From: a virus
Lineage: Duplodnaviria > Heunggongvirae > Uroviricota > Caudoviricetes
DNA: 64,000 nt
Virus record (IMG/VR): IMGVR_UViG_2778261161_000002
Strand: one strand, 5' to 3'
The notes below the pieces were generated by a model that was not told where the DNA came from, made no database searches, and saw only the letters and a list, made by a program, of their open reading frames with translations. How positions within the stretch are numbered: position 1 is the first letter of the stretch; each line of letters opens with the position of its first letter. The position numbers and the translations under genes are program-made. Positions 9,709 through 56,502 of the stretch are shown here, piece by piece.

Positions 9709-9929
9709 ATTAATTTGCTGTTTCTAAATCGGAATGTATGATCTGCATCATCGACTGAAGTCATCCATTGCTGAAATTTTTAGTTGATCTTCCATGTTTT
9801 CAGGCTTATATTCATGCCGTCGTAGCAAATTCTGCGACCAGGTTTGACAGCCTGAATGTTAGTGCGGACAACCGCAGATTTCCGATATTGCGGTATTTTT
9901 GTGTCCGTAAACCGCGTTACGCCCGAATT

Positions 9930-10030
9930 ATGGTGGGGCGTGATGGGGAGGCTTCGGCCTGCTGGTCTCACTAACGCCAGTCTGTCAACCCTGTCACGTC
10001 CTGCCACCTGTTTGACAGCGGGTAGCAGGT
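9930..10030 (+). ncRNA. Candidate c4-like antisense RNA region of immI module 1
   Basis: Direct repeats GTTTGACAGC at 9842 and 10010 flank a complementary CTGTCAAC at 9982, upstream of icd-like ORF; architecture as in P1 c4. Confidence 0.3.
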
Positions 10031-10058: not shown

Positions 10059-10283
10059 ATGGTTAATGCCAATCCTTGCTCACGTCCAGAATTCATCTGG
10101 CGTTTCCACTCCCTGCAAAAACACTGCGATCACTTCGCAATTGCCGCAACCGAAAAAGAAGCCCGTTCTCTGATCCCTGATCAGCATGGTGTTCTTACTG
10201 GTCGTTTCTCTACTTCCCCACAACCAAACACTAATCCCTGGTATCGCAATATTACCAATCCCGGCATTGCGGAGGCACACTGA
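10059..10283 (+). CDS. icd: Icd-like cell-division inhibitor, 74 aa
   Basis: Small ORF with EFIWRFHSLQKHCDHFAIAATEKEARS immediately upstream of and overlapping ant-like gene; paralog at 50053. Confidence 0.55.
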   Translation: MVNANPCSRPEFIWRFHSLQKHCDHFAIAATEKEARSLIPDQHGVLTGRFSTSPQPNTNPWYRNITNPGIAEAH

Positions 10284-11856: not shown

Positions 11857-14800
11857 TTGGACAAACTACTTCATTCAATCAGTGAAGCCTCCAGCTTAGG
11901 CGAACTGATTGAAATTGTTAGTCGGTTGCATAAATTACGTGCTGTTGCGACCTTTGGCGTCAGGAAAGCCGATGGCGTCAGTATTCAGAAAACACGCCGG
12001 GCAGCAAACAATGCCGCAGTAAATCTTCTTAATTCCCTTCCGCCCGGCTTCGATGGGGCGAAATTAACTGACGAACAACGTCAGATTCTTGCTGGGTATA
12101 CCGGTGAAGGCGGCCTGACAGATGGTGAGGGCAGCCAATACGAATACTACACGCCACAGTTTATGGCTGAAGGTATATGGGATCTGTTTGCTGACTACGG
12201 TATTGATGGCGGGCACGTACTGGAACCATCAGCGGGCACAGGTATTTTCCAGGAGACAAAACGGCAGGGCATGATAATGACCAGCGCCGAACTGTCTCCG
12301 ATTTCTGGTCGAATAAACCAGCTTTTGCACCCGGAAGACGATGTGAATATCGGGGCGTTTGAGGCGCTGGCGGCGAAAGATGCAATGTATGACCACGCTG
12401 TTGGTAACGTACCGTTTGGTGAAGGGCGTTCCGGCGTTGCCGGGCTTGATCCGGCATATGCAAACGAGAAGAACGTTGGCAATTACTTTGTGCTGCGCAC
12501 GATCGACAAGGTTAAGCCTGGTGGGCTTATCGTATTGGTGGTGCCAAATGGCATGACCGATGGTACGAAATATAAAAAATTGCGCGATAAAGTCAGCCGT
12601 AAAGCGGAATTTTTGGGCGCGCATCGTATGCCTTCCGGTACGTTCAGTGAATCAGGTACAGATACCGTGGTGGACGTATGGGTATTGCGTAAACACCCGG
12701 AAGCCTTCCTGGAGATGATCCCCGATACGGATGATTCGACGCTCAAATCGGCAAACGTCCTTTGGGATACCTTCCTCAAAGGAAAATGGTTTACAACCGA
12801 AGGGAAGCGATTTGTTTACGGCGACATGGAACGTACCAGCTTCCGCAATACCCTGGTGGTGAAAAAAGACGGTCGTGTATCCAATGAGTCGATGAAAACC
12901 GCGCTATCTCGTCGCTTTGATAGTCGCATCAATTGGGATTTGCTCGGCGTAACTACTCAGGCATGGCAGGGCGCGAAAGTGGGCGATAAACGCCTTGTAG
13001 GCGGTATCTGGCATGAGTTTGATGGTCTGAAATGGGTTAAGGACACGACAACCAAATCCTCCGCGCTTGATGTAAGTCGATATGGTGTTTCGACGTTTGG
13101 CGATCTGCAGATCGCGTTCCAGTCAACAAACGGGATTCTGGCTTTGTCATGGGACCAGATATCGGCGATCGCGTCCGACTATCCATCGGTTGTCAGTGAT
13201 GAAGTGGCAGCAATGATTCGCTTTGCTGGCAAGCAGCGAGAAAAAGACAGGGAGCGCGTTATGCGCGGTGCACTGATAGGTCAGTTGATCAACAAGGCAC
13301 TTGATTTGCGTAACCTGGGGGTGAACGTTGATGACAAACTGGCAGATGCATCCCGCCTGGCGGCAGCAGAAGTTGCGAAGTATGGACCACCGCACGCGAT
13401 TAAGCTGAATGGGCTTGCTGAAGCTGGCGCTAAAAACTGGATGACGTTCACTGGCAATGTGAAACAGGATGGTTCCACTTCTGACCTTCTGGCAGGGCGA
13501 CTTGATGTAACGGATGGTGCTGCCGGTATTGACTTTACGCGTCCTGAACAAGTGATAGCACATCTTTTTAGTGATGTAGCCCTTAATCCTATAACGCTGG
13601 GCGACTTTCGTGAGGCGTTTGCTGGTGAACTGCCAGAGGACGACGACGCGGCCCTTGAATACCTGGCGAAATTTGATGATATCGCTATTGATGGGTATGG
13701 CTGTCTGCTGCCGATGGACCGCGCCACCAGCGGCGATGTTGCAACCAAAACAGCACTGCTGGTGGGTTGGCGTGATGCGTCAACAGGTGAGCAGAAAGCG
13801 AACTTTGAGCGTCAGTTGGCGAAAATCGAAGAGAAACGCATTTTCACGCCACTAAATAAAGTCACCGTTAATCTGAACGCCCGCTGGCTGGATCGCCGCT
13901 TGATAAAAGAGTTCCTGGCAGAGCAGGGCTATGACGAGTTTAAGTACACTGAACCTGATCTGAAGGTCGTCGATGGCATTCTGGTATCTCCGGACGATTA
14001 CGAAGGTAAGGACGGGGTATTTACCGGCTATCAGCTACGAACCGTAAACGGCAAAAACGGGAATGAGTTCAAGAAGGCCAACAATAAAGACGGCTTCCTG
14101 AACCAGTTAGAAAACTACCTGAACGGTGTTAAACCGCGTGGGCAGAACGCTAACGAGTACCTGGATAAAATTGCTCAACTGGAAGTTAGCTTTAACGACT
14201 GGTTACGCACTCACCCGCAGGCTGATCAGATAGCCCGCGAGTATAACGACGCATTCAATGGTTTCATTCCGTTCACGCATTCTGACGCACCGCTTGGCCT
14301 GGAAGGGATTAGTGGAAAGCGCATTCCTCTGACTTATCAGAATGAAGAAGTTCGGCGCTTGTCAGAAGATGGGCGCGGCATCATGGGATTTGGTACCGGG
14401 CTGGGTAAAACCACGACCGCGCTTGCGCTTGAGGCGTATAACTTCGAAACAGGTCGCACTAAACGCACGTGTATTGTTGTTCCGAAGGCGGTTTATCAGA
14501 ACTGGTATCACGAGGCACAGAGTTTCTACAGTGCTGATGCCTTCGCCAATATGATGTTTATCGGTTTGGATGAAGTTCGTGATGACAGCGGAAATATTCT
14601 GACCGCGCCGGTGCTTGATGAAAATGGCGAACCACGCCTCGACAGTAACGGGCAGCCTCTTACCAGAAATGTTGTGAAAGAGTCCGCCAGCGCCGTTATC
14701 GTTCAGCGCATGAACATGATCCCGTCGTCAAATTGGCGAACGGTCATCATGACAAAAGAACAATTCGCGTCTATCCCGCTACGAGAAAAAACCATCGAGG

Positions 14801-17800
14801 AGAACTCACAGCAAGCTGTCTTTAATGCTGTGGAAATGGGGCGTCTTGACCTGGCGTCTGGCAAACACCGTGATGCACAGAAGAAGAACAAGATTAAGGA
14901 TCAGGCCGCGAATACCGGTACAACGAAGAAGCAGAATATCCCGTACTTTGAGGATATGAACTTCGATAGCGTGATTGCCGACGAGGGGCATAACTACCGC
15001 AACTCCTTTAATGCCGGGCGTGAAGCGGGACAACTGGCATATTTGCCTAACCCGGCAGTATCCAAGATGGCCCGCGACATGGCTGTAAAAGCTGCGTACA
15101 TGATGAAACGCAACAACGGACGTGGTGTAGTCATGCTGACGGCAACTCCGCTGGTGAACAGTCCGATTGATGCCTTCAACATGCTGTCTACTGTCATTCC
15201 GCAGGAAGAGTGGATGCGCATGGGCATCATTACGCCTGATGATTTCGTTCGTGTGTTTGGCAAAACAGCCACAGTTCAGGTCCAGAAAATTTCCGGGGAA
15301 GTGGAAGAGAAGCAGGGGCTGGTGGGCTTCCAGAACCTTGATGGCCTGCGTGGTATTTTCCATCGTTGGACCACTCTGAAGACTGCCGCAGATGTCGGAG
15401 CGACGGTTAAAATTCCCGACATCATCGAGAACACCTTGCAGATCCCGATGACAGGGGAGCAGGAGTCTGCTTATGAAGAACTTCGTAAGCGTGCTCAGGA
15501 GTTAAGTCGCAATGATGAGCTGACAGTCGATGAAAACGGGCATATCACTAACGACAAACCGGATGATTTCATCTTCTCCATCATCCGTGACATGGACAAG
15601 GTTGCTATAGACCCGGATCTGTATGCCAGTGCGATTACATTCCAGTTCCCCGTTGAGCTTGCAGACCAGGTAAAAGCTATTGCTGATGCCTTGCCAAAAG
15701 TAGCTGGTGGTAAAGTGGCAGATGATGTTGATGAGGCCGAGGAAGACGGCGCTGGCGGGCTGGTCAGTACGCGTACCAGCAAGGTAGTGAAGACCGCTTT
15801 TAGTGAACATCCGACGCATGTTGAAATACGTGCCAGCATTGAACTGGAAGCTGAAATACTGAAGGCCATTGCGGCTGCCGGTATTGATATGCAGCAGGTA
15901 TCGCACCCCATCCCGCCGAAGTATGCCGCGCTGATCGAAAATCTTCGTGAAGGTCTGAAGAACGGTAAGCAGATCGTCTTTATTGATGAAAAAGCCCAGC
16001 ACCAGAAGCTGCGCCGTATTATCGCCAGTGCACTGCAAATGCCGGAGCAGGAGATTGGCATTATCAATGCGACGACAGTTAGCCAGGCTGGCGGCATCAA
16101 GCTGAAGAAGGTGAATAAGCCGACCGAACCTACTCCAAACAAAAACGGTGAATACAAAGAAGGGGCATGGGAAACCTACTACAGCAAACTTGCCCAATAT
16201 GAGGATTATCTCTCAGCTAAAAATGATGCTGGCCTTGAGGGCATGGAAGGTATTGCCGCCGACTATAACGAAGGTCGCACGCGCATCATAATCTGTAACA
16301 AGAAGGCTGAAGTAGGTATTAACCTGCACATCGGGACAACCGATATCCACCACCTGACACTACCCTGGACACCAGCCAGTATCGACCAACGAAATGGGCG
16401 CGGTGCGCGCATAGGTTCACCGCAAGAGAAGGTCAATGTTCACTACTATTGTGGCAAAGGCACATTCGACGACTTCCGTCTGGATACGCTGAAACGTAAG
16501 AAAGACTGGATCAAGATGGTGATGACCTCCGACATGTCAGAGATCGCCAATGGTGATGTGGATGATGCTGATGAACGCGCCATTATGCTGGCGGCAAACC
16601 CGGAAGAACGCCGCGCAATCATGGCTCGCCAGGCGCAAGAGCGTGAAGAACGTCTGAAACTGAAAGCACAGCGCGAGGCCAACAATGCTCTCGATATCTA
16701 CCTGAAAGCGGCAAACGCCGCCGGAAAAGATATCGGCATGATGGAGACAGAACTGAAAAGCGCGATGGAACAGATAGAGTATTACCAGCGCAATCTTGAC
16801 GACCTGATAAAAGCGGGTACGAACAGGAATGGGCAAAAATACGCGCTTGAGCAGTTGAGTAGCTACAGAAAACGTGCGCGGGTGCTGCGGTTTGCGATCA
16901 CCAGGGCAAAAGACGCGGATACCATAATGAAACGCTCTCGTGGTGATGTGGAGCGCGCTATTAAGTCTGGTGTGCTGGATATCAGTATCGATGTTATTCA
17001 GAACCCACAGGAATATATGCGCACTGACAAGAATATCCTGTTGCATAAAGGTAGTTATTACCGTGCAGTCATTGATGATCGCGAAACAACAGCGATTGTC
17101 CGGGTGGAAAAAATTGACGGTGAAAAAGCACAATACATCTGTCGTATCGCCTGGCTGGATAGAGCAAGTCGTTACGCTCGATCACCGGGGTCAATCGTTA
17201 CATTGCCGTTTGACTCTGTGATTGAAGCGGTAACTTTTGAAGAGGGGGTTGCTGAATCGCGCGCAACGGCTGCGCGTGGTGTTCAGTGCCACCAGCTATC
17301 AACAATACTTACTCGCGATCAGTTCTATGATGCTATTCGCAATGGGGTAATGAATGTTATTGCTGGTAAACCTGGTAATGCATGGGGCGGTGGATCAGCT
17401 ATTAAATACTGGGCATATCGCACAGAAGATGGTCAGATCGCGCTGTCATCGGCCTATGATGGCGTGATAGGCCAAAAAATCGGGCGAGCATCGGATATAG
17501 CACCTGAACGATGGATATATCCTGATGGCAACGACGAGGCGCTGAAGCGTGAAGTGGCAAAAATACAAGCCAGTGATAACCCGCTGAATATCGTGGACGG
17601 AGAGGGATTCCTCCAGGCATTGTATGGGTATGATTACATCCAGGGAATGCAGGCATGGGGCGCACAGGCAACGATGGATGATGTTGCCAAGGAGTTCGAA
17701 AACTGGATGGCTGGGCGTGGTCTGTCAGGTCGTTCGCTTAATAAAGTCACTTCTGAAGATATTCTTAGCTTGTTCCGTAAACCGTCCGGAGAAGGTCTGG

Positions 17801-18693
17801 AATCATTCTGGAGGACCGTGCTGGCATACCGTTTATTCCAGGGCAGGATGAAAGCCTTTAGCAATATCGATGATATTGAACGGATGTTTAATCAGGTCAA
17901 GATCGCGAAAATTAAGGCGAAGATCGAAAAAACACGTTCTGCGCTGGTGGCCTGGCGCGATGCATTGTTTGAGCAATATAAATCACTCAGTGATGCAGAT
18001 GGATGGGCGGCGCTGGAACAGTTGGCGAATAATGGGGTAGATGGGGCGAAACTCGCCATTGTCCAGGCTGATAACCCCCTGGAATCACCGGCAGCACAGT
18101 GGATTAAGGTGGGGGCTGTCATCAATGCATTTGATGAAAAACACATTAGTAAGGACGATTTTGCTGATGCTGTTTCTGTTAATCGCCTGGTAGAAATGGC
18201 TACCCGCCGCGCCCGTGAGTTGAAAGATGGCGACTATGTGAATGAGTTGCCGGATACGCTCAAATCGGCAACGTGGCAGGACTATGTATCGCTGAAAAAC
18301 GGCGGGGCCACTGAATCAGAGATCGCGGAAAGGCTTGAGCAGGCTGAAAGCAAAAGAGAAGAGCAGGCGGCAGTGGCTGAAGCCAGAGCTGATGAAGCGG
18401 CAAATGATGACTATATCATTGTGGTTAATGATAAGCCTATTCGCGCTAAGGCGCGTGTTCGCGGGCGCTGGTGGAGCGTCAGCGAGGACGTTGGCGCGGT
18501 TTATCTCATTGCCGACCAACCAGGTTCCTCGACAATACGGAACGCCAAAGACGCGATTAAGAAGATTGGCGGGCGTTTCTGGAATTTTGAAGTGAATCCG
18601 GTCGCGGATGTGGACTTTGACCGTCCGGCGTGGATGGTATCTACGCGTTACTCGGTAGATGAACTGCGTAAAATAATCGCCGATGCGGCTTAA
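11857..18693 (+). CDS. darB: Giant 2278-aa DarB-like protein: N-terminal N6-adenine MTase domain + SNF2/DExH helicase domain
   Basis: LEPSAGTGIF (motif I) and GNVPFGEG (motif IV-like); GFGTGLGKTTT Walker A; VIADEGHNYRN box II; DQRNGRGARIG motif VI; size matches P1 DarB. Confidence 0.7.
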   Translation: MDKLLHSISEASSLGELIEIVSRLHKLRAVATFGVRKADGVSIQKTRRAANNAAVNLLNSLPPGFDGAKLTDEQRQILAGYTGEGGLTDGEGSQYEYYTPQFMAEGIWDLFADYGIDGGHVLEPSAGTGIFQETKRQGMIMTSAELSPISGRINQLLHPEDDVNIGAFEALAAKDAMYDHAVGNVPFGEGRSGVAGLDPAYANEKNVGNYFVLRTIDKVKPGGLIVLVVPNGMTDGTKYKKLRDKVSRKAEFLGAHRMPSGTFSESGTDTVVDVWVLRKHPEAFLEMIPDTDDSTLKSANVLWDTFLKGKWFTTEGKRFVYGDMERTSFRNTLVVKKDGRVSNESMKTALSRRFDSRINWDLLGVTTQAWQGAKVGDKRLVGGIWHEFDGLKWVKDTTTKSSALDVSRYGVSTFGDLQIAFQSTNGILALSWDQISAIASDYPSVVSDEVAAMIRFAGKQREKDRERVMRGALIGQLINKALDLRNLGVNVDDKLADASRLAAAEVAKYGPPHAIKLNGLAEAGAKNWMTFTGNVKQDGSTSDLLAGRLDVTDGAAGIDFTRPEQVIAHLFSDVALNPITLGDFREAFAGELPEDDDAALEYLAKFDDIAIDGYGCLLPMDRATSGDVATKTALLVGWRDASTGEQKANFERQLAKIEEKRIFTPLNKVTVNLNARWLDRRLIKEFLAEQGYDEFKYTEPDLKVVDGILVSPDDYEGKDGVFTGYQLRTVNGKNGNEFKKANNKDGFLNQLENYLNGVKPRGQNANEYLDKIAQLEVSFNDWLRTHPQADQIAREYNDAFNGFIPFTHSDAPLGLEGISGKRIPLTYQNEEVRRLSEDGRGIMGFGTGLGKTTTALALEAYNFETGRTKRTCIVVPKAVYQNWYHEAQSFYSADAFANMMFIGLDEVRDDSGNILTAPVLDENGEPRLDSNGQPLTRNVVKESASAVIVQRMNMIPSSNWRTVIMTKEQFASIPLREKTIEENSQQAVFNAVEMGRLDLASGKHRDAQKKNKIKDQAANTGTTKKQNIPYFEDMNFDSVIADEGHNYRNSFNAGREAGQLAYLPNPAVSKMARDMAVKAAYMMKRNNGRGVVMLTATPLVNSPIDAFNMLSTVIPQEEWMRMGIITPDDFVRVFGKTATVQVQKISGEVEEKQGLVGFQNLDGLRGIFHRWTTLKTAADVGATVKIPDIIENTLQIPMTGEQESAYEELRKRAQELSRNDELTVDENGHITNDKPDDFIFSIIRDMDKVAIDPDLYASAITFQFPVELADQVKAIADALPKVAGGKVADDVDEAEEDGAGGLVSTRTSKVVKTAFSEHPTHVEIRASIELEAEILKAIAAAGIDMQQVSHPIPPKYAALIENLREGLKNGKQIVFIDEKAQHQKLRRIIASALQMPEQEIGIINATTVSQAGGIKLKKVNKPTEPTPNKNGEYKEGAWETYYSKLAQYEDYLSAKNDAGLEGMEGIAADYNEGRTRIIICNKKAEVGINLHIGTTDIHHLTLPWTPASIDQRNGRGARIGSPQEKVNVHYYCGKGTFDDFRLDTLKRKKDWIKMVMTSDMSEIANGDVDDADERAIMLAANPEERRAIMARQAQEREERLKLKAQREANNALDIYLKAANAAGKDIGMMETELKSAMEQIEYYQRNLDDLIKAGTNRNGQKYALEQLSSYRKRARVLRFAITRAKDADTIMKRSRGDVERAIKSGVLDISIDVIQNPQEYMRTDKNILLHKGSYYRAVIDDRETTAIVRVEKIDGEKAQYICRIAWLDRASRYARSPGSIVTLPFDSVIEAVTFEEGVAESRATAARGVQCHQLSTILTRDQFYDAIRNGVMNVIAGKPGNAWGGGSAIKYWAYRTEDGQIALSSAYDGVIGQKIGRASDIAPERWIYPDGNDEALKREVAKIQASDNPLNIVDGEGFLQALYGYDYIQGMQAWGAQATMDDVAKEFENWMAGRGLSGRSLNKVTSEDILSLFRKPSGEGLESFWRTVLAYRLFQGRMKAFSNIDDIERMFNQVKIAKIKAKIEKTRSALVAWRDALFEQYKSLSDADGWAALEQLANNGVDGAKLAIVQADNPLESPAAQWIKVGAVINAFDEKHISKDDFADAVSVNRLVEMATRRARELKDGDYVNELPDTLKSATWQDYVSLKNGGATESEIAERLEQAESKREEQAAVAEARADEAANDDYIIVVNDKPIRAKARVRGRWWSVSEDVGAVYLIADQPGSSTIRNAKDAIKKIGGRFWNFEVNPVADVDFDRPAWMVSTRYSVDELRKIIADAA

Positions 18694-21795: not shown

Positions 21796-21893
21796 GGAGA
21801 TCGTCGTCAGGAAATCATTGACGCTTGCCGGGTATGGGCGAACGAATGGGATAAGAAGAATGGGGGGGTAGAAGATCTTTATGGGAAATAATG

Positions 21894-21902
21894 TGTTAGA
21901 AA
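21894..21902 (-). promoter_or_regulatory. Operator-like motif (copy 5)
   Basis: aatgTGTTAGAAAtcta. Confidence 0.45.
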
Positions 21903-22049
21903 TCTAAAATCACAATTCGAATGTATTGATTGTGAAGATAACTTAACATAGAATTTTCCTTGCTGGTGGGCGGTACCCACGTTTCGCTTGCTGGGCTTGA
22001 TAGTCACTTATTGGTTATTGTTCTCCCACCAGCATTTAACAAATTAAAG

Positions 22050-22058
22050 TGTTAGAAA
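22050..22058 (-). promoter_or_regulatory. Operator-like motif (copy 6)
   Basis: aagTGTTAGAAAAata. Confidence 0.45.
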
Positions 22059-23125
22059 AATATGGTAATACAAGAGCACGCTTTGGCACCGTGCAGGCCA
22101 AAGTTCAGCAGGTTTAGTGCGGAAAGTGGTTTCAGAGAGAGCACTTTGCGGAGTAAACGACAATACATGTTGAGCCACGGAAGGTCTTTTTAAGGTGTTC
22201 ATTGATGATGGTCCGGCAGAGAGTAACGGTACATGCTGTATCTAATCATCAATGCACATCTTCAACATTAAGGAGGCATAGGGATTTTTGTGGCGGTTAC
22301 CTTTTGCCCTGAGTCTCCTTAATGTTGCGGTAATGCACCTATGCGGATGTGGCCTTGCATTGTGTCTTGAAAGAATGGGGTAAGGCCGGGGATATCCCCA
22401 GGGGGAGGCACCCCCGCTGCAACGAACAGCCACAGACGGCAGTCGAGTGATGGAAACGTGTAAAGACTTTAAACCTCGTTACGGCTGGCGTGGCAAACGC
22501 GACAACCGAGACAGAGCGGTGACGGGCGGAGAGAGTGCCGCATCAAGAAAGAAGCCGACTTGTGATCCCTTTCTGCGGGCATTTGAAAGTGAATCCAGCT
22601 CAGGCAGTCGGCTTCTTTCTTGTGTGAGATGTAGCGTATTTGCCCATCTTCGGGTGGGCTTTTTTAGGGTTTTCGTCATGGTTAGCGACTTTGCGGCGGT
22701 TTAGAAACCGACCATTAAAGTAAATGCAAACGATGATCTGATGATGGTAGCGGCCTAAGAAGCCTGACGCCACGGGGTATGAGTCGTCCCCCGTCAAAAA
22801 ATCGACCGCAGAGTGTCCCCGTCTGTGTATTAGGGAACGGGGAGGCATAACAGGCAAGGGCGCTGGTGTGATTAACCAGATGAATGAGAAGGGTCAGGTC
22901 TTTCTGGTCAGCGCCCTTACCTGTTACGTCCCTCCAGCGTAACAGCCATTGCTTGATGGCACCCTGGGAGAATTTCTTGTAACGGGTAAATCCCGTCATG
23001 CTGAAGGCGCTAATCACGCTGGAAGCCAGGGTTATGCATCCCCTGTTACCGAATTGCAGCCAGGGCGCGATGCGCCGAAAAGCATACGGAGGTGGAAGCC
23101 CTCGCCGGAGACGTACCCGGCAAGT

Positions 23126-23202
23126 GATGGTGTAGCTCAGTAGGATAGAGCAGCAGCCTTCTAAGCTGTCGGTCGGTGGTTCGAATCCATCCACCATCGC
23201 CA
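23126..23202 (+). tRNA. tRNA-Arg (anticodon TCT, reads AGA)
   Basis: Manual fold: acceptor GATGGTG/CACCATC, D-arm GCTC..GAGC, anticodon loop CTTCTAA, T-arm GGTGG-TTCGAAT-CCATC, CCA encoded. Confidence 0.8.
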
Positions 23203-23204
23203 AT

Positions 23205-23279
23205 GCCGGTTTAGCTCAGTTGGTAGAGCGCCTGCCTTGTAAGCAGGATGTCAGCGGTTCGAGTCCGTTAACCGGCACC
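23205..23279 (+). tRNA. tRNA-Thr (anticodon TGT)
   Basis: Acceptor GCCGGTT/AACCGGC, anticodon loop CTTGTAA, T-loop TTCGAGT. Confidence 0.8.
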
Positions 23280-23734
23280 GACACAACAGGTAAGGGTATT
23301 TTGCGACGTCGGAGATCGCCGTGCTTGGCAGAGGGTTCGAATCCCTACGAAGTACCCTTACCGTTGTGATGAAGTGCAGCTCTTTGAAGCAACCAGAAGA
23401 TAAGCATCTGGCTTCACAACATAAACCGCATGAACGACCAATAAACGGTAGTCCGTATGGAGAACACCCCGTTGAGGAAGAGGCCTGGCCGGAACCGTAA
23501 CCGGCACTACAACGTTGAGAACACTGGCGTAACGGGGTCATATCCCAATCTATGAATAAATGTTGCGTTGCAGCGTGACAACCAGTGTTCTCAACATTGT
23601 GGTGAATGCGCAGGCTGATGCGCGAAAGACATTGCAGCTATTGCGGAAAAGAGCTGTTCGGCGGGGCAATTAAACGCCCGTGAGAGTCTGAAATAACCGC
23701 AAGCCGGAGATCAGCACCGGTCGCCACAATCAGC

Positions 23735-23821
23735 GGAGAGTAGGGGGCATGGTGCTCAAGCGGTCTTGAAAACCGTCCCATTGCGCAAGCGATGATGGTT
23801 CGATTCCATTACTCTCCGCCA
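23735..23821 (+). tRNA. Probable class II tRNA, anticodon TGA (Ser-like), long variable arm
   Basis: Acceptor GGAGAGT/ACTCTCC, anticodon arm GCGGT-CTTGAAA-ACCGT identical in loop to E. coli tRNA-Ser(UGA), T-arm GATGG-TTCGATT-CCATT, CCA; D-arm atypical. Confidence 0.55.
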
Positions 23822-24442
23822 TCGCAACGTTAAGAGTATTTGGCTAATTAAGCGAATGCCGGAAGCAGAACCGGATCATCAAATGCGTACAGGCGTCATC
23901 GCCGCCCAGCCAGCCAAGTGCTCTTACCATTGCGGTGAATGCGGCTAAGCGCACGCGGAACAGTTAAAACAATCCTCCTTAGTGGTTAAGTCAAACATCC
24001 CGGCGTTAATTGTTAACTGGTTAACGTCACCTGGAGGCACCAGGCACCGCAATCTAATAAAGTTTCAAGCAATGGGGTTTTTGTTGTCAGACTTCAGATA
24101 TAGATGGTTGTGGAAGGAGAGCCTGTACATAGTGCAGTTATTTCTTCCGCTATTTGTCTGCTTTGTCATGCTTCCTGAGCTGAAATACGCAATTTCAGAC
24201 ACTTTAAGCACTATCGTTACTTTTGTGTTTTATCTTTACTTTGATTACTTATTGAGCACTAAAATCAATGAATTATCCGAGGAAATGCAAGGTGGCTGTA
24301 AGTGATGGATTTTTGGGCGTTTGCCGATAAGAACCCTGGTTGGACATTTTTATTTTTGCTGGTGGTTGCATATGGGGTCGAGCAAGCGGCTAAAGCCTTA
24401 CGCGGTTCTGGCAAAAAGCGTAAGCGGAATTAACAGTAATCT

Positions 24443-24518
24443 GGCCCTTTAGCTCAGTGGTTAGAGCAGGCGACTCATAATCGCACGGTCACCGGTTCAA
24501 ATCCGGTAGGGGCCACCA
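24443..24518 (+). tRNA. tRNA-Ile2-like (anticodon CAT, AUA decoder) or tRNA-Met
   Basis: GGCCCTTTAGCTCAGTGGTTAGAGCAGGCGACTCATAATCGC... near-identical to E. coli ileX from memory; T-arm ACCGG-TTCAAAT-CCGGT; CCA. Confidence 0.8.
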
Positions 24519-24972
24519 TATTTGGTTGTAACACGGCGTATGGCACATGCGTCGTTAGCGGTCTGGTGTAGCTGTTAGGTACCTTACTAACACTGCATGG
24601 GCACATCAGGTAGCCGGAATGTGCAAGTCACCGCTGGAGGGATAGCGGACTCAGGGACTCACCATCCTGGCGATTCGGTGTGACAGCCGGAATAGCACGG
24701 CGCACAACAGGAAAAGGCGTTTAATTAACGCGAGCGCCGTTTCCGTTGTGGTAATTGCGGCTATGCGCTCGTGACGAAGCCATTTTCATTCACTACGTTC
24801 TGATAAGTGACGTCGCCGGGAGTGGCTAACCTGGCAGGTGGAGGCACCACCGCCACAACTCCTCTCAATTCATCATATAGCCGCTCAGGCTGTACCTCTT
24901 AATTAATACGAAGTTACGACATCACTACCGGTACTTCCGGGGGATAGTCGCGCGTGTAAAAAAGGAGACGTT

Positions 24973-25548
24973 ATGTTAATGGCGAACGATAACGCATATG
25001 CAGAAGAAGATCTCATTTTGAGTGACTTCATAGGGAAGCGGGAACGCTGGACCCAAAAGCGAGAGGAACTTTACGCCTCATTAGTTCGCAAAGGCGTCAA
25101 TATCGAAACCGCACAGAGCGGCGATATGACAGTGGTAAGCGTTGGATTGCACGGTGTAAGCGTGTCAGCAATCAATCATGAGCCATACGTTGCGTTATCC
25201 GAGTCAATGGTAAGGTTAGTTAAGTTCCTGAAGTACACAGAAGCGAATAATGTAATCATTGGCAAAAAGAATATCCCTTTTTCCTCGGCTTTTTACTGGA
25301 TGATGAAAGGGCTTGATGCCCGGCGGACATCATGGCCTAAAGGGAGCTATATATCGATGTTCCGTGGCAGCATTGGCAGCAAAGAAAAGCTCTTCGAATT
25401 CTTGCCGGAAGAGGCATTCGATATTGTGGAAGGGTGCGATGTGATGGTGATGCCTCGCCTGGTAATGATGAATGGGGATTTACAGGCGCAGACAGACTGG
25501 TTTGCAACTGGTGTGGATATTATCGCGACTGACTGGGAGGCTTTCTGA
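24973..25548 (+). CDS. DUF2829 (Tad2-like) domain protein with N-terminal extension, 191 aa
   Basis: C-terminal half FYWMMKGLDARRTSWPKGSYIS ... WFATGVDIIATDWEAF matches DUF2829 pattern. Confidence 0.5.
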   Translation: MLMANDNAYAEEDLILSDFIGKRERWTQKREELYASLVRKGVNIETAQSGDMTVVSVGLHGVSVSAINHEPYVALSESMVRLVKFLKYTEANNVIIGKKNIPFSSAFYWMMKGLDARRTSWPKGSYISMFRGSIGSKEKLFEFLPEEAFDIVEGCDVMVMPRLVMMNGDLQAQTDWFATGVDIIATDWEAF

Positions 25549-49251: not shown

Positions 49252-49879
49252 TTTTAAGTTGAATTGTAAATTTCTCCGATGTACATTCACTACCGATTGG
49301 CACACCGGTCAACTTTTTGAGACAAACTGTTTAGTTTTTCGTATTATTGCCCCCGCCATACCTATGGCGGTGCAATATAGGTGGCTGAAAAGCCCCCGTT
49401 GACTCACGGTGTTCCAGCCTTTATTGCGCCGCCACCAGACCGTGGAACAGTCGATGGCGGCTCCGAAAGCAAGGAGTCACTACACTATGAACAACTACAG
49501 TCTTTTCCCATCACTCGTCGTCCACCACTCACGCGATAATCTGCATTCTTTATTCGCGCTGGGGGAGTCAAAATGACTGTTCGCTACCTCAACTTTCAAA
49601 TCAAGAACATTACTGGCGGTTGCTATGACTGGTTTGTCACTCTCGGAAAAGAAGTGATTACCGGGAAGCTGGATGAAGTGAAAGCTAAAGCAATGGCCTA
49701 CGCCTGCAAGCAAGCCCGGAAGAAATCCGCCAAAGCATAAAATACTGACTGTTGCGCCCTGGCATTATCGTGGGGTATATTTCTACGGCACCTTAGAAAA
49801 ACGGGTGCCGGGATTGGAACCCCGGATAATGCAAAAGGCGACACAGACGCCGAAAGCGTCTTTTCTTGTGTCATGCCAT

Positions 49880-50030
49880 CGCACAGCCATACGTAGCGTT
49901 TAGCTCAGAGATCAATGGTAGTGCTGGCTGGGCTGCCGAAAGGCAGGCCGGTTCCCTTTTGCGCCGGTAGTTCCAACCCAGTCAGTGCTACCGCCATTGA
50001 GATTGGAACCTCACGCGGTAGCTCCTTAAA
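49880..50030 (+). ncRNA. Candidate c4-like antisense RNA region of immI module 2
   Basis: GATTGGAACC at 49812 and 50001 with partially complementary GTTCCAACC at 49970; tRNA-like TAGCTCAG segment. Confidence 0.3.
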
Positions 50031-55773: not shown

Positions 55774-56502
55774 TCATCTTTTTGAAAAATCAATTTCCGT
55801 TTTATCAAATAAATTTGAAATATCAGCAACCAATTTATTAAAATCATGATCGCCATTATAAAGCGAAGTCTTCTTTATTGCCATTACAAAATCATATAAC
55901 TTTTCTGGGGAGTCAATACCAACCCCTCTACTTTTAAAAAGCTCAATGATAACTCCAACATCATCATATAATAACTTTATTGCCGCCATAATCTCTTTTT
56001 GCTGCCTAAGCAATCTCTCAAGTTCATTTTTATTTTCATCCATAATTCTTTTGTTGAATTGTGTATCATTAATACTTTTTATTATTTCAGTCTCTTTTAT
56101 TTGCAACGCCTTTCTTTTATTTTGATCCATGTCGGCATCCAAATACCTTATCTCTGTATATATTTTACTTGTTAGCTTTGATACGCAAAGAGTGACAATC
56201 GGAGCTGCAATTGATGCAATAATTCCAAAAATAAATGGCAAGCAAAAATGATAAAGCCAAGGAGACAAAACGCCTTCATAAACTAGAGGAATCTTACCTC
56301 CAACAAATGTTACAGATAAAGTATATAGGATATCATCCTTTGACTTCATCAATATTAGTATATCTTTCCAATTAATAATTAGAAAAGAAATTAATATATA
56401 TGCAAACACTTTATTAAAAAGCTTGTCTTTTATGGCATCTCCAAAAGATACTTTTATTAGATCATTTTCAGTCAATTTTTCTGTTGATGAATCTGTATTC
56501 AT
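55774..56502 (-). CDS. AT-rich membrane protein (candidate abortive-infection/exclusion effector), 242 aa
   Basis: TM segments then coiled-coil; low GC relative to flanks. Confidence 0.5.
   Translation of the reverse strand: MNTDSSTEKLTENDLIKVSFGDAIKDKLFNKVFAYILISFLIINWKDILILMKSKDDILYTLSVTFVGGKIPLVYEGVLSPWLYHFCLPFIFGIIASIAAPIVTLCVSKLTSKIYTEIRYLDADMDQNKRKALQIKETEIIKSINDTQFNKRIMDENKNELERLLRQQKEIMAAIKLLYDDVGVIIELFKSRGVGIDSPEKLYDFVMAIKKTSLYNGDHDFNKLVADISNLFDKTEIDFSKR

Follow-up and report, generated by a model that had tools for sequence, protein, structure and literature searches.

Four tRNA genes lie close together, at positions 23126–24518, in a 64,000-nucleotide stretch of DNA from a virus of the Caudoviricetes (IMG/VR record IMGVR_UViG_2778261161_000002; the whole stretch is referred to below as the window), and they raise the question of what kind of element carries them and what they do for it. 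Sequence comparison places the window element among the D6/P1-like phage-plasmids, and the cluster is the accessory tRNA module of that family. It is a known kind of feature, already annotated in RefSeq relatives, with two unusual members. Its best-supported role in the variant studied here is the supply of decoders for codons that the element overuses, an explanation that we consider probable. Points of interest to tRNA and phage-defence specialists are a serine tRNA of the (8/4) type, a tRNA-Arg that is an Asn-to-Arg chimera, and the structured RNAs interspersed among the genes.

When applied to the whole window, ARAGORN found four tRNA genes and no others, all on the plus strand: tRNA-Arg(tct) at 23126–23202, tRNA-Thr(tgt) at 23205–23279, tRNA-Ser(tga) at 23735–23821, and a gene reported as tRNA-Met(cat) at 24443–24518 that we read as tRNA-Ile2. 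These coordinates are exactly those of the four tRNAs that an earlier inspection of the letters alone (the sequence-only reading) had folded by hand, and no locus was rejected by ARAGORN. The Rfam tRNA model RF00005 (gathering score 29 bits) was passed by the Arg, Thr, and CAU genes at 70.6, 74.9, and 68.2 bits, each spanning model positions 1–71 of 71. The Ser(UGA) gene, a class II tRNA with the atypical D-arm that the sequence-only reading had pointed out, fell below that threshold; its best Rfam match was the tRNA-Sec model at 45.2 bits, just short of the gathering score of 47. PGAP calls it tRNA-Ser in relatives but tRNA-OTHER in the plasmid pE2863-2. The four loci are all intact tRNA genes.

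The identity of the element follows from its neighbours in sequence space. Over 1.7 kb around the cluster, the E. coli plasmid pE2863-2 is 99.8% identical to the window, phage D6 matches the 1.7-kb cluster region at 93%, in pieces, and P7 and P1 match at 91%–93%. At matching positions, PGAP annotates pE2863-2 with tRNA-Arg, tRNA-Thr, 'tRNA-OTHER', and tRNA-Ile, and further downstream with a Tad2-family gene, an lpa-like gene, and pacA/pacB. In P1, the annotation of the slot (NC_005856) runs through a dicF-like region, trnA (Asn), trnT (Thr), plp/upl, tciABC, trnI (Ile2), and ban. A three-way alignment indicates that the leader of 460 nt from a terminator-like hairpin to the first tRNA gene is nearly invariant among P1, D6, and the window. 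The 319 nt 3' of tRNA-Thr are 99.1% identical to P1, and upstream leader and downstream spacer are 95%–99% identical to P1/D6. Because leader and spacer are conserved to this degree, the cluster is a P1-family accessory tRNA module, homologous to trnA(Asn)-trnT(Thr)...trnI(Ile2) of P1. Our statements on P1 draw on its GenBank annotation and on general background, since the literature, when searched for a primary account of these tRNAs, yielded only mitochondrial genome notes. The P1 tRNA genes were reportedly described along with the P1 genome by Lobocka and colleagues in 2004.

To place the window among its relatives, ARAGORN was run on 117 related stretches (113 IMG/VR matches obtained via the conserved left flank, together with reference loci and the window). 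The slot order was the same across all of them. P1, P7, D6, and more than 100 related contigs all carry the module at this one locus, and only very few alleles occur. The gene in slot 1 is tRNA-Asn(GUU) in about 100 of the stretches, against 15 with tRNA-Arg(UCU); tRNA-Thr(UGU) and tRNA-Ile2(CAU) are nearly constant, and both tRNA-Tyr(GUA), sometimes placed ahead of tRNA-Thr, and tRNA-Ser(UGA) are optional. The Arg-Thr-Ser-Ile2 combination of the window is a minority variant, and at least 80% of the 1.7-kb query is present in only 61 of 5,426 complete E. coli genomes. P1 and D6 have the locus and its flanks in common with the window. P1 trnT differs from the window tRNA-Thr at one acceptor-stem base and in the CCA that the window has lost, P1 trnI is of the same tRNA-Ile2 type, and D6 also carries a Ser(UGA) gene, for which its annotators recorded that tRNAscan-SE gave no amino acid. 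In contrast, slot 1 of P1 encodes tRNA-Asn(GUU) instead of the chimeric tRNA-Arg(UCU), P1 tciA has no counterpart in the window, and downstream the window, like D6, has a Tad2-like gene, lpa, and pacAB where P1 has ban.

If the module serves translation, its tRNAs should match the codons that the element favours, and the sequence-only reading had proposed rare codons of this kind. We compared codon usage in open reading frames (ORFs) of at least 100 amino acids, taken longest first without overlap, which gave 59 ORFs and 16,008 codons for the window and 44 ORFs for a 50-kb segment of E. coli K-12. Per 1000 codons, window against K-12 sample, AGA stands at 6.56 versus 1.71 (3.8-fold), AUA at 12.74 versus 3.35 (3.8-fold), ACA at 14.43 versus 5.91 (2.4-fold), and UCA at 12.24 versus 5.41 (2.3-fold). 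Ranked by enrichment, the codons are AGG (4.7-fold), AUA, AGA, CGA, CGG, ACA, and UCA, so that the Watson-Crick cognates of all four tRNAs fall within the top 7 of 61 (hypergeometric probability 35/521,855, about 7e-5); AGG, at rank 1, can also be read by the UCU anticodon via wobble. The proposal is broadly right in this respect. Its second half, that the enrichment resides in AT-rich morons, does not hold, as the excess is element-wide: AGA and AUA occur in 57 of the 59 ORFs, and their joint density correlates weakly with ORF G+C (Spearman rho -0.22, p = 0.09). One gene does fit that picture, an ORF of 241 codons at 55774–56502 on the minus strand with 29% G+C, an outlier with the highest AGA+AUA density in the window (70 per 1000) that is likely a recently acquired moron.

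For the codon-supply role, an upstream promoter under repressor control would drive joint transcription of the tRNAs, the small ORFs, and the structured RNAs around them, and host RNases would process the transcripts. The host arginyl-, threonyl-, seryl-, and isoleucyl-tRNA synthetases (ArgRS, ThrRS, SerRS, and IleRS, the last after lysidine formation by TilS) would then charge the tRNAs, and the boost to four decoders that are minor in E. coli would speed the translation of phage-plasmid genes. The products of argU, ileX/ileY, thrU, and serT are indeed said to be of low abundance in E. coli, reportedly from the tRNA measurements of Dong and colleagues in 1996. A parallel may be drawn with the lambdoid Stx prophages, which we take to carry the rare-codon tRNA genes ileZ-argN-argO upstream of stx: there too, a temperate coliphage has Ile2(CAU)- and Arg(UCU)-type tRNAs for the overused codons AUA and AGA. 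The window differs from them in gene lineage, position, and companions (Thr and the (8/4) Ser), and no toxin gene is linked. On this account the window is one more case of phage tRNAs tracking the codons overused by a temperate element, in a variant of a module known since the P1 genome.

Several observations weigh against this role. The host sample is small, comprising 44 ORFs of a single 50-kb K-12 segment in which highly expressed genes abound, and this inflates the ratios given above; genome-wide, K-12 uses about 2 AGA, 4.4 AUA, 7 ACA, and 7 UCA per 1000 codons, which brings the enrichment down to about 1.7–3-fold. The G+C content of the element is lower (47.5% versus 51.6%), and A-ending codons are expected to rise with it; thus, the codon match is partly a composition effect. 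Near-identical backbones carry tRNA-Asn(GUU) in place of tRNA-Arg, and some carry tRNA-Tyr. As neither is a rare-codon decoder, codon supply alone does not explain the repertoire of the family or the alternation of Asn and Arg. The window allele of tRNA-Thr has no encoded CCA. Finally, the promoter scan found no strong promoter inside the cluster, and a terminator-like hairpin lies 460 nt upstream of it.

The CAU gene is identical to K-12 ileX at 68 of 76 positions and to metY at 47 of 78, so that the claim of near-identity to ileX in the sequence-only reading was essentially right, though somewhat generous. Over nt 1–42, with the entire anticodon arm included, it matches ileX at 41 of 42 positions (position 6 differs), and it keeps C4-G69 and C5-G68, the pairs that serve as TilS determinants. 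PGAP and the P1 annotation both name it tRNA-Ile. Because of the 68/76 identity to ileX, the gene is a tRNA-Ile2 of the ileX type, not a tRNA-Met, and its CAU anticodon is expected to be turned into lysidine-AU by host TilS and then to read AUA.

The tRNA-Arg(UCU) gene has a more composite origin. Among 50,697 phage records, the genes that match it best over the full length encode tRNA-Asn, at identities of no more than 83%. Compared with allele 2 of the family tRNA-Asn, it is identical at 15/15 of nt 1–15 and 29/30 of nt 48–77 (the acceptor stem, the 5' strand of the D-stem, and the T arm), and at only 18/32 of nt 16–47, the part that comprises the D-loop with A20 and the anticodon arm. The pattern is reversed against the tRNA-Arg(UCU) of the crAss-like phage cr111_1, with 10/15, 30/32, and 17/30 for nt 1–15, 16–47, and 48–77, respectively, and the internal block also matches a Shewanella phage tRNA-Arg(UCU) at 29/32. 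The gene is therefore a chimera between the acceptor and T arms of a tRNA-Asn and the D-loop and anticodon arm of a tRNA-Arg. Since the 14 differences from tRNA-Asn are confined to one internal block, the simplest account of the swap is gene conversion or recombination with the tRNA-Arg gene of another phage, by which the D-loop and anticodon arm of the resident tRNA-Asn would have been replaced to yield a tRNA-Arg. E. coli ArgRS recognizes A20 in the D-loop, C35, U36 or G36, and A73 or G73. The gene carries A20, C35, U36, G73, the anticodon UCU, and an encoded CCA, and its D-loop AGUAGGAUA has the same format as AGUUGGAUA of argU. The exchange of Arg for Asn brings in A20 and the UCU anticodon and retains G73. 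It would thus provide a clear natural example of a tRNA whose amino-acid identity was changed by replacement of D-loop and anticodon arm on fixed acceptor and T arms.

The class II gene had been suspected of being a suppressor-like or degenerate tRNA. Its predicted structure has an 8-bp acceptor stem closed by A8-U65, a 4-bp T stem, a canonical 5-bp anticodon stem, and a variable arm with a 5-bp stem and a GCAA loop; A8 follows A7 in place of the usual U8, the discriminator is G73, and CCA is encoded. The D-arm is compact, with a stem of 4–5 bp and a loop of 3–5 nt. In the window its sequence is GGGC-AUGGU-GCUC, which can also be drawn with a 5-bp stem as GGGCA-UGG-UGCUC; the common allele has GAGCA-UGG-UGCUC, and an rV5-like homologue has GAGCA-AUGG-UGCUC (5-bp stem and tetraloop). 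One D-stem pair is G.U in the window allele, A-U in most P1-like alleles, and G-C in a Klebsiella allele; therefore, the pair is maintained. Homologues that share this D-arm are widespread: 579 plasmid records of P1/D6-like and SSU5-like phage-plasmids from Escherichia, Klebsiella, and Salmonella contain one, as do Streptomyces phages and phages of the rV5-like and Sugarland-like groups.

A scan of viral contigs for a T-loop plus 3' end gave 98 distinct class II tRNAs, 52 of them with a compact D-arm. Pair 8:65 can form in 38 of 43 aligned compact-D-arm sequences (AU 14, GC 11, GU 8, UG 4, CG 1) and is changed on both sides in 16 of those 38. The canonical 7/5 alternative, 49:65, is paired in 30 of the 43, with both sides changed in only 2. 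The 46 class II tRNAs of the scan that have a canonical D-arm show the opposite preference (49:65 paired in 41/46, 8:65 in 22/46). Across the compact-D-arm family 93.8% of cells are paired, compensatory change is seen in 15 of 21 pairs, among them all four D-stem pairs, and the observed covariation score was reached by 0 of 500 shuffles. This covariation supports the eighth acceptor pair, and the tRNA is under structural selection.

These features coincide with the (8/4) tRNA-Ser or allo-tRNA class, which was found as near-misses of the tRNA-Sec model and has been reported from bacteriophages; its members are described as having serine anticodons, a D-arm like that of tRNA-Sec, G73 (or U73), and a long variable arm (Mukai et al. 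2017, PMC5389517). The window tRNA-Ser likewise falls just short of the tRNA-Sec threshold. It has the 8/4 stems, a long D stem with a very short loop as in tRNA-Sec, G73, a long variable arm, and an anticodon for serine, and we assign it on these grounds to that class; the P1-like allele departs from the class in a D-loop of 3–5 nt on a stem of 4–5 bp, where the rV5-like homologue has the 5-bp stem and tetraloop, and in an anticodon stem of the canonical 5 bp. The gene is not degenerate, given its conservation in distant phages, its covarying stems, and its fit to a described class (PMC5389517). A suppressor or recoding tRNA is hardly credible either. The compact, tRNA-Sec-like D-arm and the best score on a selenocysteine tRNA model speak for such a function, even though that score lies under the gathering score. 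The anticodon is UGA, not UCA, CUA, or UUA, and because UGA reads the serine UCN codons, the tRNA is not a suppressor. Moreover, 45 of the 52 family members have serine anticodons (UGA 33, GCU 9, CGA 3), and the known SerRS determinants, G73 and a long variable arm (PMC5389517), are present. The (8/4) tRNA-Ser is a widespread tRNA of E. coli/Klebsiella phage-plasmids and rV5-like phages that standard annotation mislabels or misses.

Decay is a question for the tRNA-Thr gene as well. It is identical to K-12 thrU at 60 of 76 positions, with the same anticodon loop and a different anticodon stem, and a second class of Thr alleles in the P1 family has yet another anticodon stem. Its 3' end (23277–23281) reads ACC-G and not ACCA, which means that CCA is not encoded; such an allele is unusual among E. 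coli-type tRNA genes and is common to 3 surveyed contigs. E. coli has a CCA-adding enzyme, so the missing CCA is not inactivating, and the host enzyme could supply the end.

Behind this gene, at 23289–23362 on the plus strand, a repeat search found a stable hairpin with a T-arm-like core (AGGGTTCGAATCCCT; minimum free energy -33 kcal/mol, z = -3.9). It stands in tandem register with both preceding tRNAs, as the T-loops are spaced 78 and 78 nt apart, and its perfect T-arm motif lies exactly one tRNA length past tRNA-Thr. A fifth tRNA at this place was rejected by ARAGORN and Rfam. In related contigs the slot holds at least three alternative inserts bounded by CACAAC...GTTGTG, the second of which is also T-arm-like, and the hairpin is probably a decayed tRNA or an exchangeable spacer hairpin. 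The minus-strand ORF at 23251–23541, the counterpart of P1 plp, was considered as a coding sequence and set aside: among 45 distinct sequences, drawn from 85 contigs, the first, second, and third codon positions hold 25, 24, and 24 variable sites, and neither Pfam nor PHROG gave a match. The ORF is probably non-coding, and the annotation of plp in P1, perhaps of upl too, may be spurious, lying over structured RNA.

Taken with the G.U pair in the D stem of the Ser allele, its PGAP label tRNA-OTHER, and a cluster content that varies among relatives, the CCA-less Thr allele and the decayed tRNA-like hairpin could be read to mean that the whole cluster consists of non-functional relics, hitch-hiking remnants of phage recombination or integration sites in which the class II and CCA-less genes are pseudogenes. 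We regard this as very improbable. All stems are intact, the cluster forms one conserved locus with very few alleles across P1, P7, D6, and more than 100 contigs, and compensatory changes keep the Ser structure across distant phages; given the CCA-adding enzyme of E. coli, the loss of CCA does not argue for a pseudogene.

The Asn and Tyr genes of the family, which codon supply alone does not explain, may point to another function. Phage tRNAs can stand in for host tRNAs destroyed by defence nucleases that cut tRNA (tRNases) (PMC11555353, PMC10802454, PMC10264068). It is possible, and we put it forward tentatively, that the cluster has counter-defence as a plausible second or parallel role alongside codon supply, replacing tRNAs cut by tRNases of the host or its prophages such as P2 Old, PARIS, retron/Septu effectors, and colicin-type anticodon nucleases. 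Cluster and adjacent Tad2-like gene, which begins 455 nt downstream, would then form an anti-defence island. The Tyr and Asn family tRNAs decode no rare codons, yet are known tRNase targets (PMC11555353, PMC13096335, PMC10264068). P2 Old depletes E. coli tRNA-Thr(UGU), which is cut after nt 27–29, and phage tRNA-Thr(UGU) genes, including that of the temperate phage HK446, rescue infection against it (bioRxiv 10.64898/2026.07.10.737580). HK446 carries an Asn-Thr pair, as P1 does, and its Thr anticodon arm (AGUCGC-CUUGUAA-GCGAAUGG) equals that of the P1-like tRNA-Thr allele 2 save for one difference. The anticodon stem is where variation clusters, both among the Thr alleles and between Asn and Arg, and in the window the stems of the Arg, Thr, and Ser tRNAs all differ from those of the host.

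Other evidence stands against counter-defence. The anticodon loops (nt 32–38: CUUCUAA, CUUGUAA, CUUGAAA, and CUCAUAA) are identical to those of argU, thrU, serT, and ileX, and the Ile2 anticodon stem is that of ileX too. By the criterion of van den Berg et al. 2023, the four window tRNAs show no anticodon-loop difference from their host cognates; thus, the published signature of nuclease evasion, mutation of the anticodon loop (PMC10264068), is absent. Differences confined to the stems may matter for Old, which cuts in the stem. The idea that the window tRNA-Thr is itself the Old-resistant HK446 tRNA was rejected, since the two agree at only 61 of 77 positions and the HK446 anticodon arm belongs to the other family allele; this also counts against counter-defence for the allele at hand. 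Further, we know of no tRNase that targets tRNA-Arg(UCU), tRNA-Ser(UGA), and tRNA-Ile2 together.

Measured against the phage tRNAs that do evade defence, namely Thr-UGU of HK446, T4, and Bas32 (P2 Old), T5 tRNA-Lys (PARIS), and T5 tRNA-Tyr (retron Eco7/Septu), the window has a Thr(UGU) stem unlike that of the host, a sister allele with the HK446 arm, and an adjoining anti-defence gene. It differs in that its loops are those of the host and its Thr allele is not the HK446 allele that was tested. Should the diversity of anticodon stems reflect evasion of tRNases such as P2 Old, the matter could be addressed with simple genetics in P1-like phage-plasmids, which are also common carriers of resistance genes in Enterobacteriaceae. 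In the lambdoid HK446 itself, tRNA-Asn(GUU) and tRNA-Thr(UGU) lie 5 nt apart (10098–10253), between the late promoter and the holin gene. Its genes differ from those of the P1 family outside the Thr anticodon arm, a pattern that indicates exchange of tRNA segments between these unrelated temperate phages.

The space between the tRNA genes is also structured. The sequence-only reading had seen a short repeat, CATTG(T/C)GGTGAATGCG, behind two of the tRNAs. The repeat is real and occurs exactly twice, at 23595–23610 and 23928–23943 (0.11 matches expected by chance), but it is not strictly placed behind two tRNAs, nor is it a short tRNA-associated motif. The first copy lies 315 nt past tRNA-Thr and 125 nt ahead of tRNA-Ser, the second 107 nt past tRNA-Ser, and both are the 5' ends of a larger structured element of 105–140 nt that is present in four copies on the plus strand. 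These are E0 (22323–22426, 83.7 bits, at the start of the module), E1 (23595–23733, 94.2 bits, ending 2 nt short of tRNA-Ser), E2 (23928–24056, 124.2 bits), and E3 (24744–24862, 106.4 bits, 110 nt 5' of the Tad2-like gene), with scores from a covariance model, R1, that was built from the four copies and found only these in the window. All four are closed by a helix of 8 bp, in which two pairs show compensatory change from copy to copy, and contain a 5' hairpin and a GGAGGCACC hairpin. R1 orthologues occur in D6, P1, and an SSU5-like phage-plasmid, in the last of which one again abuts tRNA-Ser.

The nearest Rfam family is STnc100 (RF02076), which E2 matches at 39.4 bits (gathering score 47) over model positions 31–147 of 206; E0, E1, and E3 were not reported by cmscan, run with E-values up to 10 for 22900–24700 and up to 1 for 21900–25100. 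STnc100 has recently been linked to the PasD prophage small RNAs (bioRxiv 10.64898/2026.05.13.724894). The elements resemble STnc100/PasD in the closing helix, a GGUGAAU box, and the GGAGGCACC hairpin. They differ in a sub-threshold match to only the core of the 206-nt model, in the lack of a terminator behind them, and in their four copies among tRNA genes, and we do not file them as members. They could be processing or insulating elements of a polycistronic tRNA/mRNA transcript, or small RNAs. Each copy is closely followed by a cargo, namely the dicF-like region, tRNA-Ser, the small ORFs, or the Tad2-like gene. Inspection by eye suggested a short fifth copy at 23363–23420 (GTTGTGA...TCACAAC), where R1 gave no match. 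We also considered whether the single element of P1 arose by recombination between E1 and E2, a history that would account for the gain or loss of the Ser cassette; the idea was dropped, as the P1 element is orthologous to E2 at both of its ends and bears no hybrid signature.

The repeated elements and exchanged anticodon arms invite a broader, speculative account, to which we give a small chance: the cluster would be a modular island for both counter-defence and translation, rebuilt as phage tRNA genes swap entire anticodon arms with one another, with stem exchanges that escape stem-cutting tRNases. Conceivably, the swap from Asn-GUU to Arg-UCU on a fixed acceptor/T-arm frame changed the decoding identity, and the Thr alleles swapped anticodon stems, one of which is common to the Old-resistant HK446 tRNA. 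The E elements between cassettes would then act as processing or insulating RNAs within one long transcript that also delivers Tad2.

Transcription of the module may start upstream of the leader. At 21892–21954 on the plus strand, an operator-like 16-mer, TGTGTTAGAAATCTAA, is followed by TTGATT-17-TAGAAT, the sole sigma-70-like promoter match in the region. Sites like TGTGTTAGAAATCTAA occur 11 times in the window against 0.6 expected, at 21892–21907, 8496, 9698, 19546, 19600, 20643, 30390, 31800, 44011, 48583, and 49238. The motif is likely an operator of the element's C1-type repressor, and 21892–21954 is a candidate repressor-controlled start of the transcription unit. The annotation of P1 places its tRNA module behind the ban promoters, which are under C1 control. 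The P1 C1 operator consensus ATTGCTCTAATAAATTT, as at P1 Op72, has no match with up to 3 mismatches upstream of the cluster or across the window; therefore, P1-type control cannot be claimed. A different 16-mer at a position analogous to the P1 operator is consistent with a D6-type repressor.

The leader is preceded, at 22544–22665 on the plus strand, by a perfect 17-bp inverted repeat with 45 nt between its arms and a strong hairpin resembling an intrinsic terminator (GCCCATCTTCGGGTGGGC followed by T6). This is the position of the dicF-like region of P1; the stem-loop differs from P1, the terminator is conserved among P1, D6, and the window, and Rfam gives no DicF match. Between E2 and tRNA-Ile2 lie two small overlapping ORFs on the plus strand, of 77 amino acids (24072–24305) and 43 amino acids (24302–24433), and PGAP annotates only the latter, as hypothetical. 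They occupy the position of tciB and tciC in P1, and a proposed homology to TciB/TciC was rejected in the absence of any Pfam or PHROG match. The Tad2-like (Thoeris anti-defence 2) gene is at 24973–25548 on the plus strand; it matches Pfam PF11195 at 39.1 bits (cutoff 25) and has this product name from PGAP in pE2863-2. Two genes of unknown function separate it from lpa.

Elsewhere in the window, an ORF of about 2,175 codons at 12163–18693, named SNF2-related protein in pE2863-2, encodes the giant DarB-like protein that P1-family elements typically carry. Two C4 antisense RNA genes are also present, at 9806–10011 and 49788–49998 (66.3 and 76.7 bits). A c4 a1/b1 target site adjoins one and an isrK-like RNA the other, which suggests two immunity (immI-like/antirepressor) control regions in one phage-plasmid.

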